UHGV virus genome: UHGV-0040082
Source of the DNA: a virus
Length of the DNA: 33,970 nt
Strand: one strand, 5' to 3'
How positions within the stretch are numbered: position 1 is the stretch's first letter; each line of letters opens with the position of its first letter. The translations under genes were made by a program, and so were the position numbers. This document shows, piece after piece, positions 24,653 through 32,374 of the stretch. The notes under the pieces are model-generated. The model had not been told where the DNA came from. It did no database searches and was given only the letters and a program-made list of their open reading frames with translations.

Positions 24653-24754
24653 TTATGGATTGATTAGCAGGTACAAACCGCCGAACAAAGCGACGTTAAC
24701 AGCGATTGCAGCAGCGATGGCAAAGGCCAGGGCGAAAACGTGTTTACCGTCCAT
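24653..24754 (-). CDS. Possible 33-aa hydrophobic peptide
   Basis: MDGKHVFALAFAIAAAIAVNVALFGGLYLLINP; RBS GAGAGGA; shares a 17-nt leader (CGTTTTAGAGAGGATTT) with the upstream AntA-like gene. Confidence 0.3.
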   Translation of the reverse strand: MDGKHVFALAFAIAAAIAVNVALFGGLYLLINP

Positions 24755-27791: not shown

Positions 27792-27797
27792 ACATTA

Positions 27798-27818
27798 GCC
27801 GCCGGATGGCGGCTTTTC
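27798..27818 (+). terminator. Rho-independent terminator after the repressor frame
   Basis: Hairpin gccgcc-ggat-ggcggc followed by ttttctt. Confidence 0.65.
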
Positions 27819-27915: not shown

Positions 27916-27944
27916 TTGACTCGGTGTTTTACGGGGCGTATATT
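27916..27944 (+). promoter_or_regulatory. Near-consensus sigma70-type promoter (pL-like) for the plus-strand early operon
   Basis: TTGACT (27916-27921), 17-nt spacer, TATATT (27939-27944). Confidence 0.6.
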
Positions 27945-28292: not shown

Positions 28293-28583
28293 ATGAGCGT
28301 TACAATTATGTATGGAAAATGTGATAGCAAAATGAACGCCAGGGAACGCAGAAGGATAAAAAGAGAAAACGAAAGAAAATCATCACCTGCAATTAATAAA
28401 ACAGACAATGTGGATAAAGCTATTCGATTTGCAAACGAGGAAAGGTGCAAACCAAATAGCATTAAAGAACGTCGCAAAGGATCAGTAAAATGGTATACGG
28501 AAAATGAAAGCGGCAGCTACTACCACGCAACGCAACCACGCCATTTAGGGGAGAAACCCCTGGATAAAGTCCGTTACCATTAA
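28293..28583 (+). CDS. N-like antiterminator candidate (arginine-rich motif protein)
   Basis: 96 aa; N-terminal arginine-rich segment NARERRRIKRENERK; first gene downstream of the pL-like promoter and nut-like site; RBS GGAG. Confidence 0.45.
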   Translation: MSVTIMYGKCDSKMNARERRRIKRENERKSSPAINKTDNVDKAIRFANEERCKPNSIKERRKGSVKWYTENESGSYYHATQPRHLGEKPLDKVRYH

Positions 28584-28732
28584 TACAAAATGTAAACATT
28601 CGGAGGTGACATTATGGTTATTCAGGCGCTTCAATTCAAACTGGCAGTAGCGGAAATGCTTCACGATGCCGAAATGTGGAGCGCCGCGAATAAAGCCTTA
28701 TACATAGTGTTAACAGCGAAGGAGATTAAAGA

Positions 28733-29374
28733 GTGAAAACAGAGTTACACAAAAAGCTGTGGACGATTCAGCAAACACTGAACGCTCCAAAGGGGCAATA
28801 CAATAAGTTCGGTGGATATTCATACCGATCAGCGGAGGATATTTTAGAGGCTGTAAAACCACTACTTCAAAATGTCACGTTGATGGTTAGTGATGAAATT
28901 GTCCTGATTGGTGATCGCTATTATGTGAAAGCTACGGCAACACTAAGCGACGGTGAGGATTCAATTTCAGCAACTGCATTTGCAAGGGAAGAAAAAGAGC
29001 AAAAAGGGATGACGGCTGGGCAGCTAACTGGCGCGACATCAAGTTACGCGCGGAAATATGCCCTGAACGGCCTGTTCTGTATAGACGATGCGAAAGATTT
29101 AGATACTGACGCTTACGCTAAGCAGACTGGCCAGCAGCCTCGCCAGCAGAAAAACCCACCAAAACAACAACCACAGCAGCAGAAAGCGCCGCCAAATCCT
29201 GATGAGGTGTTAGCGCGTTTCTGTGATGCGGCAGCGAAAGCGCAGGACGCTAACAAGTTACGCGAGATCTTCGGGAAGTGCTGGAAACTACTTCCTAAAG
29301 ATTCAGAGCAGCAACAGAAAGCCAAAGACGTTTATGATATTCGCTTAAAAGAGATTAACGGGGAGATCGGTTAA
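28733..29374 (+). CDS. erf: ERF-family single-strand annealing protein
   Basis: GTG start with AAGGAG RBS; N-terminal two-thirds resemble recalled P22 Erf (LNAPK.QYN.FG.Y.YRS.EDILE.VKPLL, IVLIGDRYYVKATAT, GATSSYARKY.LNGLF.IDDAKD); Gln/Pro-rich linker. Confidence 0.8.
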   Translation: MKTELHKKLWTIQQTLNAPKGQYNKFGGYSYRSAEDILEAVKPLLQNVTLMVSDEIVLIGDRYYVKATATLSDGEDSISATAFAREEKEQKGMTAGQLTGATSSYARKYALNGLFCIDDAKDLDTDAYAKQTGQQPRQQKNPPKQQPQQQKAPPNPDEVLARFCDAAAKAQDANKLREIFGKCWKLLPKDSEQQQKAKDVYDIRLKEINGEIG

Positions 29375-29778
29375 TGAGCTTAAATTTAATCACACTTGGC
29401 GGTAATATCGGAAATGATATGGAAATTCATTACACGCAAAACGGTAAAGCTATTGGTAGCTTTCCGTTAGCTGTAACGAATGGCTACGGTGATAATAAAC
29501 GGACAATGTGGATCACTTGCCTGGTATTTGGCGAGCGTGCGGAAAAATTAGCGCCACATATCCGTAAGGGTGGAAAAATAGTGGTAAGCGGTCGCCTGGA
29601 TGTTCGGCAATATGACCGGAACGACGGCACGAAGGGAACTGCGGTAGAAGTGGCGGTCAATGAGTTTGAGTTCATGGCTGTTAACCAGCAAGGCCAGCAG
29701 CAGAAAGCGCCGCCGCAGCAGCAGAATAATAACGGGAATAATGTTCCTCCTGACTTCGATGACGACATCCCGTTTTAA
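29374..29778 (+). CDS. ssb: Single-stranded DNA-binding protein
   Basis: OB-fold-like N-terminal region, Gln/Gly/Asn-rich linker, acidic C-terminal tail DFDDDIPF as in E. coli SSB. Confidence 0.85.
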   Translation: MSLNLITLGGNIGNDMEIHYTQNGKAIGSFPLAVTNGYGDNKRTMWITCLVFGERAEKLAPHIRKGGKIVVSGRLDVRQYDRNDGTKGTAVEVAVNEFEFMAVNQQGQQQKAPPQQQNNNGNNVPPDFDDDIPF

Positions 29779-29793
29779 ATCAATAGGTTAGCG

Positions 29794-30072
29794 ATGGTTG
29801 ATTATTTAAAAACGCCACCGCCACCGCGAACAAAAGAGCAAGTATTAAAAGAAGCCCGTGATCAAATCGATCGCGGGCTTTTTTTATGCGGCACGGCAGC
29901 GGAACGGATGGCAAAAAGATTTAGTGACCTGTACGCAAAACAAATATGGTTCGACAACTGGCAGGCAAGTTTTTACCCACTGCAAAGAAAACCGGATATG
30001 CACTGGCCTGAATATGTCGATCCACGTATGCGCAAATATCGCGGGCGTATGGGCCAGGTCATTAACGATTAA
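29794..30072 (+). CDS. Hypothetical protein (92 aa)
   Basis: ORF in early-left operon; no domain recognised. Confidence 0.4.
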   Translation: MVDYLKTPPPPRTKEQVLKEARDQIDRGLFLCGTAAERMAKRFSDLYAKQIWFDNWQASFYPLQRKPDMHWPEYVDPRMRKYRGRMGQVIND

Positions 30073-30311
30073 TGAGGTATCAAATCATGATCGAAGAAAA
30101 AGAAGTTGATAAAGAAGTGCCTGACACGGCTGATGACTTTGTTACTTTTGACGGCGGTCTGTATGAGTCCGATACGTCGGCTGGGTGGACGGATAAGTGG
30201 CCGCAATTAACAAAAGAGGAGCTTCTAAGCAGAAACAGTTTTGGTAGTGACAAAGAACGGCTGGCTAATAACAAATGGCTTGATAAGTTAATTGCGGAGG
30301 GTGGCAAATGA
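30072..30311 (+). CDS. Hypothetical acidic protein (79 aa)
   Basis: ORF overlapping neighbours by start/stop; no domain recognised. Confidence 0.4.
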   Translation: MRYQIMIEEKEVDKEVPDTADDFVTFDGGLYESDTSAGWTDKWPQLTKEELLSRNSFGSDKERLANNKWLDKLIAEGGK

Positions 30312-30421
30312 GCTTTGCAAAAATTGCCGCATTGCTTGCGGCTTTATCTATCGCCGTGCTGTATCTCAGCGTATCTCTTTATATCACGGTAGCGATCATT
30401 AAACTCATTACTAACATGTGA
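30308..30421 (+). CDS. Possible 37-aa hydrophobic membrane peptide
   Basis: MSFAKIAALLAALSIAVLYLSVSLYITVAIIKLITNM; ATG overlaps the upstream stop (ATGA). Confidence 0.3.
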   Translation: MSFAKIAALLAALSIAVLYLSVSLYITVAIIKLITNM

Positions 30422-30429
30422 GGCCAATC

Positions 30430-30549
30430 ATGAAAGTCGGTAAGGATATTGTGACTGTCGCGTTTTGCATTATTTGCTTCCCGTTTGTGGTTGTTTCTTG
30501 TGGCGCATTTGCTGTGCTGGTTAGCTTTATTTTCAGAGGATTGCTGTGA
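30430..30549 (+). CDS. Possible 39-aa hydrophobic membrane peptide
   Basis: MKVGKDIVTVAFCIICFPFVVVSCGAFAVLVSFIFRGLL; RBS GAGG 6 nt upstream; stop overlaps the next start. Confidence 0.3.
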   Translation: MKVGKDIVTVAFCIICFPFVVVSCGAFAVLVSFIFRGLL

Positions 30550-30821
30550 TGAAAATATGGGATGCAAAGGCTGGTGATCTTGTTGTGTTGCCTGAATATC
30601 GTGATGACCCTGGCCTGGTTGTACTGAATAAGATGTATGACGATCTAGAGCGCCCGCTAGTGGTTAAATACCTGGACGGAACAATCATCGAACCGCGCTA
30701 CTTTGATGATATTGAACTGAAGGCCCGCAATGTTCGCGTTAAGCCGTTCCGGGCTTATGCTGAAAACCACTGGCGGAAATTGTTCGCCGGACTGAATGGG
30801 ATGTTCGGTGTATGGCTATAA
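30546..30821 (+). CDS. Hypothetical protein (91 aa)
   Basis: ORF; no domain recognised. Confidence 0.4.
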   Translation: MMKIWDAKAGDLVVLPEYRDDPGLVVLNKMYDDLERPLVVKYLDGTIIEPRYFDDIELKARNVRVKPFRAYAENHWRKLFAGLNGMFGVWL

Positions 30822-32276: not shown

Positions 32277-32374
32277 TTATGGACGACACATTGTTTTATA
32301 TGTGCTGTTGCTGGGGTTTTATTGCCTTATGCCTGTTTATCAGGTGGTTTATTGAATACCATATGAGGTGATAT

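Follow-up and report, generated by a model that had tools for sequence, protein, structure and literature searches.

Do two very short and strongly hydrophobic reading frames, lodged between larger genes of an early phage operon, represent genes, and if so, what kind of product would they give the phage? The question is raised by a 33,970-nucleotide (nt) stretch of the virus genome UHGV-0040082, here called the window, which by its nucleotide identity and gene order is a prophage of the mEpimmI (mEp021) group of temperate coliphages in Escherichia coli. The plus strand of the window holds ORF1, an open reading frame (ORF) of 37 amino acids (aa) at 30308..30421 with the sequence MSFAKIAALLAALSIAVLYLSVSLYITVAIIKLITNM, and ORF2, of 39 aa at 30430..30549 with the sequence MKVGKDIVTVAFCIICFPFVVVSCGAFAVLVSFIFRGLL; each has an ATG start and each was read directly from the window. 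A first-pass annotation, made from the letters alone, had placed two ORFs of these lengths at 30308-30549, as is found here, and had argued that small membrane peptides in the early operons of temperate phages are often host-killing or division-inhibiting factors. Comparison with related sequences identifies both ORFs as protein-coding genes under purifying selection, and what they encode are new, uncharacterised small phage-encoded membrane peptides, which are themselves a known kind of feature.

The case for coding is built on 24 GenBank/RefSeq loci (69-99% nucleotide identity) and 43 IMG/VR loci, which together with the window make 68. The ORF1 frame is intact in 67 of the 68 and the ORF2 frame in all 68. 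Within the GenBank/RefSeq set, counting the window, both frames are intact in 25 of 25 loci, with lengths of 35-39 aa for ORF1 and 38-40 aa for ORF2, and within the IMG/VR set the corresponding counts are 42/43 for ORF1 and 43/43 for ORF2. The sole ORF1 exception is a metagenomic contig with a 1-nt deletion in an A5 run. Loci found independently via ORF3, the 90-aa neighbour downstream, carry both small ORFs directly 5' of it in 45 of 46 instances, the exception being the same contig with the A5 deletion.

The pattern of substitution is that of genes. Variable sites are distributed over the first, second and third codon positions as 23/16/33 in ORF1 and 19/21/35 in ORF2, and the pooled Nei-Gojobori ratio of nonsynonymous to synonymous substitution rates (dN/dS) is 0.20 for ORF1 and 0.35 for ORF2, while the shifted sense frames give ratios of 0.8-1.5 and contain stops in every sequence. 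A minimum-substitution count returned 72 synonymous and 60 nonsynonymous changes among 35 unique sequences of ORF1 (dN/dS ~0.29, binomial p = 2e-12) and 56 synonymous and 69 nonsynonymous changes among 43 unique sequences of ORF2 (dN/dS 0.35-0.39 across methods, binomial p = 3e-7), with an expected synonymous fraction of 0.24-0.26 in the binomial test. The first-pass annotation had named a lack of conserved frames among related phages as grounds for giving up its proposal; the frames are conserved and under purifying selection, and those grounds fall away. An antisense ORF of 62 aa (30379..30567) was considered and rejected, as the same frame has stops in 19 of 20 cases over ORF1 and neither a promoter nor any operon logic was found on that strand. 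Over ORF2 the antisense frame has stops in only 2 of 22, so that the 62-aa ORF is open there in most relatives, and the antisense frame that shares wobble positions shows a low dN/dS, the expected mirror of the sense frame.

The signals for translation are equally well kept. ORF1 and ORF2 are adjacent on the operon strand and fill the only gap between their flanking genes. A Shine-Dalgarno sequence, GGAGG (30296..30300, plus strand), lies 7 nt 5' of the ORF1 ATG, and a second, (GT)GAGG (30418..30423, plus strand), runs across the stop codon of ORF1, 6 nt 5' of the ORF2 ATG. Upstream, the TGA stop of a gp22-like gene (30087..30311, plus strand; phrog_28542, with a weak DUF2737 match) overlaps the ORF1 start in the tetranucleotide ATGA; downstream, the ORF2 stop overlaps the start of ORF3 (30549..30821, plus strand; phrog_28396) in TGATG. 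The junction of ORF1 with ORF2 has no such overlap and is instead an 8-nt spacer holding the GAGG Shine-Dalgarno sequence. Thus the earlier description of the pair as lying between larger early genes is borne out, but its chain of overlapping stop and start codons applies to two of the three junctions, the middle one being a short spacer with a ribosome-binding site.

Where the junctions were read, GGAGG 5' of ORF1 is kept at the same place in 25 of 25 loci and GAGG 5' of ORF2 in 23 of 25, with GGGTGAG in the other two. The same 25 junctions also keep the overlapping stop and start codons shared with the flanking genes. Among relatives the spacer between ORF1 and ORF2 measures 3, 7, 8 or 9 nt, and the two frames are therefore maintained independently of one another. 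This variation also disposes of the GTG at 30418 as an ORF2 start that would truly overlap the ORF1 stop: it cannot be the conserved start, because it is out of frame in relatives whose spacer is 3, 7 or 9 nt. The two genes are probably translationally coupled to their neighbours and tightly packed within an early phage operon. One natural disruption of the arrangement was seen in E. coli STEC308 (NZ_CP091020.1; locus L011, 1668..2400), where a 714-nt KilA-N domain gene sits exactly between ORF1 and ORF2. A short junction bearing a Shine-Dalgarno sequence (…aatcATG) is repeated at both ends of this insertion, and both small ORFs are intact.

Both products are extreme in their hydrophobicity. 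When the six frames of the window are searched for ATG ORFs of 30-60 aa, they are the top two of 115, with grand average of hydropathy (GRAVY) values of 1.81 for ORF1 and 1.89 for ORF2 against a mean of 0.15 (standard deviation 0.70). Each consists of one hydrophobic stretch with Lys/Arg on both flanks. In ORF1 this is a 26-residue core bounded by K5 and K32, and in ORF2 it is a helix rich in Cys and Phe, preceded by the positively charged N-terminal residues MKVGKD and with R36 near the end. An AlphaFold2 model of ORF2, from a 34-sequence alignment, is a single helix over residues 5-38 with a predicted local distance difference test (pLDDT) score of 88; this model is of ORF2 only, and the single-pass assignment of ORF1 comes from hydropathy only. 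These properties agree with the first-pass view of each peptide as essentially one transmembrane helix. Conservation is unevenly spread along the peptides: the C-terminal half of ORF1 (YLSxSLYITVAIIKLIT) is nearly invariant while the half before it shifts between Ala, Leu, Val and Ile, and in ORF2 the residues F12, C13, F17 and G25 are invariant.

Two familiar types of small phage or membrane protein do not fit the pair. ORF2 as a lipoprotein was rejected, there being by inspection no lipobox before any Cys. Nor are the traits of a holin or antiholin seen, as the ORFs sit among the recombination and accessory genes of the early operon and not in a lysis cassette, and only 5 residues in ORF1 and 3 in ORF2 follow the last charged residue, with no holin-like charged hydrophilic C-terminal tail. 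It should be noted that ORF2 of the window differs from its relatives at codon 18 (30481..30483), where CCG places a Pro in mid-helix. This L18P change is private to the window, position 18 being Leu (in nearly all), Val or Met in every relative examined, including the 99.4% identical prophage described below, and it possibly impairs this particular copy.

By every search made, ORF1 and ORF2 belong to narrow, lineage-restricted families. No match to either was found in Pfam, PHROGs, NCBIfam or PADLOC, and no relative of the peptides was found among the GTDB species representatives. With tblastn against GenBank phages, ORF2 hit the mEp phages alone and ORF1 had no hit, and an index-free HMMER scan of 1.84 billion (1.84e9) representatives with an ORF1 profile returned 4 proteins only, all of them family members or chimeras. 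At 90% identity, the protein database clusters number 49 for ORF1 and 71 for ORF2, those with a name being E. coli or Caudoviricetes metagenome entries. Nearly all cluster members are 35-40 aa long (37-48 aa for ORF2), with a few longer frameshift or chimeric products, and many lie on contigs of ~54 kb, which matches the size of these phages. Peptide identity ranges over 49-92% to 11 diverse relatives for ORF1 and 42-90% to 12 for ORF2, and over the 351-nt stretch spanning the pair the DNA identity is 88-91% with the mEp phages and 74%, in the first half only, with MagusPhagus.

The orthologues within the mEpimmI group occupy the same slot between the gp22-like and 90-aa genes, are uncharacterised, and show no difference in kind: mEp515_31/_32, mEp554_27/_28, mEp010_29/_30, mEp013_28/_29, mEp044_27/_28 and MagusPhagus CDS0113/0112. 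How they have been annotated depends on the record. The original mEp021 record has no coding sequence at ORF1 or ORF2 and carries a predicted terminator, TERM_2, inside ORF1 instead, and the Prokaryotic Genome Annotation Pipeline (PGAP) calls neither ORF in most E. coli genomes, including the 99.4% identical one, and only ORF2 in UMNK88. Both ORFs are called as hypothetical proteins in the PHANOTATE- or Pharokka-based records of mEp010, mEp013, mEp044, mEp515, mEp554 and MagusPhagus. The pair can be spoken of as unannotated, as it was at first, with respect to the former records and not the latter. Small bacterial inner-membrane proteins routinely escape annotation pipelines (reviews PMC12648545, PMC7549839).

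What the peptides do may be approached through the small membrane proteins that are already known. With MgrB, AcrZ, MgtS, CydX and YohP they share a length of no more than 50 aa, one transmembrane helix and the lack of an enzymatic domain. These proteins form a functional class and not a homologous family, and have no sequence relationship to ORF1 or ORF2, which differ from the members of this class in being phage-encoded and in lying in a lytic early operon. We favour, at a probability of roughly 0.5, a reading in which the peptides would bind specifically to a partner in the membrane, whether a host inner-membrane protein, each other or ORF3, because their conservation is residue-specific and not merely hydrophobic (the C-terminal half of ORF1; F12, C13, F17 and G25 of ORF2). 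The two genes would be transcribed within the early operon antiterminated by the N-like protein Gp17, and ribosomes would start each at its own Shine-Dalgarno site, with the gp22-like gene translated just before the pair and ORF3 just after. Soon after infection or induction, each product of ~37-40 residues would insert in the inner membrane as a single transmembrane helix, and modulation of the partner would serve the phage early in lytic growth, in the way that MgrB, AcrZ and MgtS act on larger partners. Of this sequence of events, we infer membrane insertion, the timing of expression and partner binding.

Several points weigh against specific partner binding by a pair of expressed peptides. 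The membrane partner is hypothetical. Variants of ORF1 and ORF2 occur in mixed combinations among the phages, and an obligate heterodimer is therefore not supported. No significant one-sided moment of conservation was detected on the helices (p = 0.73 and 0.27 for the two peptides), so that a defined interaction face is not demonstrated. The substitution counts are crude per-column parsimony and not tree-based likelihood, and the selection signal rests on limited divergence because all of the relatives belong to one closely related phage group. Finally, the evidence for translation is sequence-based, and the mass spectrometry of mEp021 was confined to virions.

The chief rival, and the explanation nearest to that of the first-pass annotation, is that one or both peptides oligomerise and depolarise or permeabilise the inner membrane, as do Hok, TisB, Ldr and DinQ, and so arrest host growth or division early. 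The size, extreme hydrophobicity and single-helix build that ORF1 and ORF2 have in common with the type I toxins (Hok/Gef, Ldr, TisB, DinQ, Ibs/Sho) speak for it, as does the toxin-antitoxin name that PGAP gives to ORF3; furthermore, the same operon carries ipe, a gene reported to kill cells when overexpressed (Negrete-Mendez et al. 2025, PMC11893012). Yet neither peptide matches a type I toxin family or a defence model, and their setting is unlike that of type I modules, since they are embedded in a polycistronic operon with coupled translation. Consensus scans, which are weak evidence, found no promoter-like site on either strand near 30300..30550, so that neither a promoter of their own nor one facing them was seen, and no antisense RNA was found. 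The strong residue-specific conservation of the ORF1 C-terminal half suggests more than a generic activity on membranes, and the 'toxin' name of ORF3 comes without support from a hidden Markov model (HMM). Small proteins that are toxic when expressed are indeed encoded in early or PL-type operons, including lambda Kil, Qin DicB, T7 Gp0.4 and YdfD, the lysis protein of the dicB operon (PMC11323111, PMC8835842), and YdfD sets a precedent for toxicity of a small protein encoded in the early operon of a prophage (PMC8835842). ORF1 and ORF2 show no resemblance to Kil, DicB, Gp0.4 or the type I toxin families in Pfam, PHROGs, NCBIfam or PADLOC, and within the operon a Kil-like signal comes only from another gene, of 40 aa, at 28614..28736. 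The targets of Kil, DicB and Gp0.4 are FtsZ or MinC, and all three are soluble peptides not known to span the membrane. The premise that membrane peptides in this position tend to be killers or division inhibitors is thus weaker than it was stated to be, because the classic early-operon killers are not known to be membrane-spanning and because the Kil-like candidate is another gene. Membrane damage is on balance doubtful as the function of the pair, toxicity being plausible but not indicated by the analysis. Less probable again is that the peptides act early to exclude superinfecting phages by blocking the entry of later phage DNA at the inner membrane, as T4 Imm and Sp do. Several phage exclusion proteins are small inner-membrane proteins, and hydropathy points to that site for ORF1 and ORF2 just as their position points to early expression; however, there is no similarity to the Sie, Imm or Sp families, and no promoter was found that would express the pair from a repressed prophage. 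In addition, experiments attribute exclusion in the mEpimmI group to Lpp/Cor-like lipoproteins that are encoded elsewhere (PMC11893012).

The contrast between the two halves of ORF1 might alternatively reflect a secreted-peptide precursor, in which residues 1-23 serve as a Sec signal peptide and cleavage after S21-V22-S23 releases the 14-residue LYITVAIIKLITNM. A variable N-terminal half before a nearly invariant C-terminal half would suit such a precursor, as would the invariant Ser at position 23 and the small residue (S, A or T) always found at position 21, which fit the -3/-1 rule. The continuous 26-residue hydrophobic stretch from K5 to K32 is nonetheless typical of a membrane anchor, the putative mature peptide would be strongly hydrophobic and only 14 residues long, and the idea was drawn from reading the alignment; we consider it extremely improbable. 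The remaining alternative holds the role of the region to be mainly transcriptional, with an intrinsic terminator read through by Gp17 antitermination and the ORFs incidental to it. Its basis is a GC-rich hairpin inside ORF1, GCCGCA-ttgct-TGCGGC followed by TTTATCT (30326..30342, plus strand), which is the predicted TERM_2 of mEp021, has a 6-bp stem with 5 GC pairs and the T-rich tail TTTATCTATC, and scores as terminator-like. Terminators t1, t2 and t5, the second of them possibly this hairpin, are stated to have been demonstrated by experiment (PMC11893012). The hairpin sequence is also that of the ORF1 codons Ala-Ala-Leu-Leu-Ala-Ala. Only the closer relatives combine hairpin and T-tract: the diverged loci L003, L005, L009, L017, L018 and L021-L024, about half of the diverged relatives, have lost the T-run, the stem or both, while the ORFs, their Shine-Dalgarno sites and their start codons persist, and the substitutions concentrate at third codon positions. 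An RNA element as the explanation of the region was ruled out, since its fold is no stabler than that of shuffled sequences (z = 0.06) and Rfam has no match within ORF1 or ORF2. A mainly transcriptional account is thus very unlikely. The hairpin most likely arises as a by-product of the Ala codons, and at the most it serves, in addition to the coding function, as a weak terminator specific to the lineage.

ORF3 always lies directly 3' of ORF2 with start/stop coupling, and its family is equally narrow (47 clusters). For some copies PGAP gives the name 'toxin-antitoxin system toxin subunit', but no Pfam, NCBIfam or PADLOC model matched ORF3, no PDB relative was found by sequence, and its AlphaFold2 model has a pLDDT of 55, too poor to use. 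The name looks unsupported, because there is neither an HMM nor a PDB match and the model is of low confidence. It is conceivable, at long odds, that ORF1, ORF2 and ORF3 form one conserved module peculiar to mEpimmI phages, in which two peptides would make up a membrane anchor or effector beside a soluble, beta-rich protein ending in a C-terminal helix, the whole working as a previously undescribed inner-membrane device for host takeover or counter-defence. A third small hydrophobic ORF of the same operon may stand alongside this module. This ORF, of 30 aa (MDDTLFYMCCCWGFIALCLFIRWFIEYHMR), lies at 32279..32371 on the plus strand between the gp26- and gp27-like genes; it has no annotation in mEp021 (L001, 4527..4619) and is intact, with few changes, in at least 30 of the 41 IMG/VR loci long enough to contain it.

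The operon in which the pair resides is well matched within the phage group. At the nucleotide level the region has 85-91% identity with mEp021-group phages and 99.4% with a prophage of E. coli NZ_OZ501612.1, it is carried by 35 of 5,426 complete E. coli genomes, and the gene order of the operon matches mEp021 gp17-gp25. Ahead of the gp22-like gene, all on the plus strand, are an N-like antiterminator (gp17 homologue, 28293..28583), the Kil-like 40-aa gene mentioned above (gp18 homologue, 28614..28736; phrog_34942, weakly matching phrog_2055, the Kil family of septation inhibitors, at E = 1.5e-3), Erf (28733..29374), SSB (29374..29778) and the Abc2 anti-RecBCD protein (29794..30072). In the mEp021 record the plus-strand run goes on to NinF, NinG, a resolvase and Q. 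Negrete-Mendez et al. 2025 (PMC11893012) place the action of Gp17 at two sites, nutR1 5' of gp17 and nutR2 farther downstream, and the supplements of that study make no mention of the ORF1 and ORF2 genes. As gp17 stands behind nutR1 and is followed by erf-ssb-abc2 and, further on, the Nin genes and Q, this is the rightward early unit in mEp021 nomenclature. The first-pass label of an early-left operon has to be set aside, holding only by analogy with the location of the recombination genes in lambda.

Some further elements of the window were recorded around the operon. A sigma-70-like promoter at 27916..27944 (plus strand; 10/12, TTGACT-17-TATATT), ~350 nt 5' of the N-like gene, is a candidate early promoter for the operon of ORF1 and ORF2, and before it, at 27797..27814, a strong bidirectional hairpin with a T-run follows a repressor-like gene and is equivalent to TERM_1 of mEp021. 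At the start of the abc2-like gene (29785..29887, plus strand) there is a sub-threshold Rfam match to Thr_leader (28.7 bits, where the gathering score is 55). What it marks is probably a hairpin with a T-run and not a leader, and ARNold-predicted terminators are annotated near the abc2-like start, apparently in the same place, in mEp010, mEp013, mEp044 and mEp554. On the minus strand, a hydrophobic ORF of 33 aa (24653..24754; MDGKHVFALAFAIAAAIAVNVALFGGLYLLINP) occupies the gap between two leftward-operon genes and may encode a further small membrane protein that annotation has overlooked.

As matters stand, ORF1 and ORF2 are an ordinary kind of feature to which no function is assigned. The most direct outcome is a correction to annotation: PGAP, in most of the E. 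coli prophages of this group, and the reference mEp021 record both pass over two conserved genes, to which the ORF at 32279..32371 apparently adds one more. The mEpimmI phages have been reported to be as common as lambdoid phages in human gut isolates (PMC11893012). Should the peptides prove toxic or partner-specific, they would join the few small membrane proteins of phages that have been characterised. Small membrane peptides made early in infection are plausible handles on the membrane physiology of the host.

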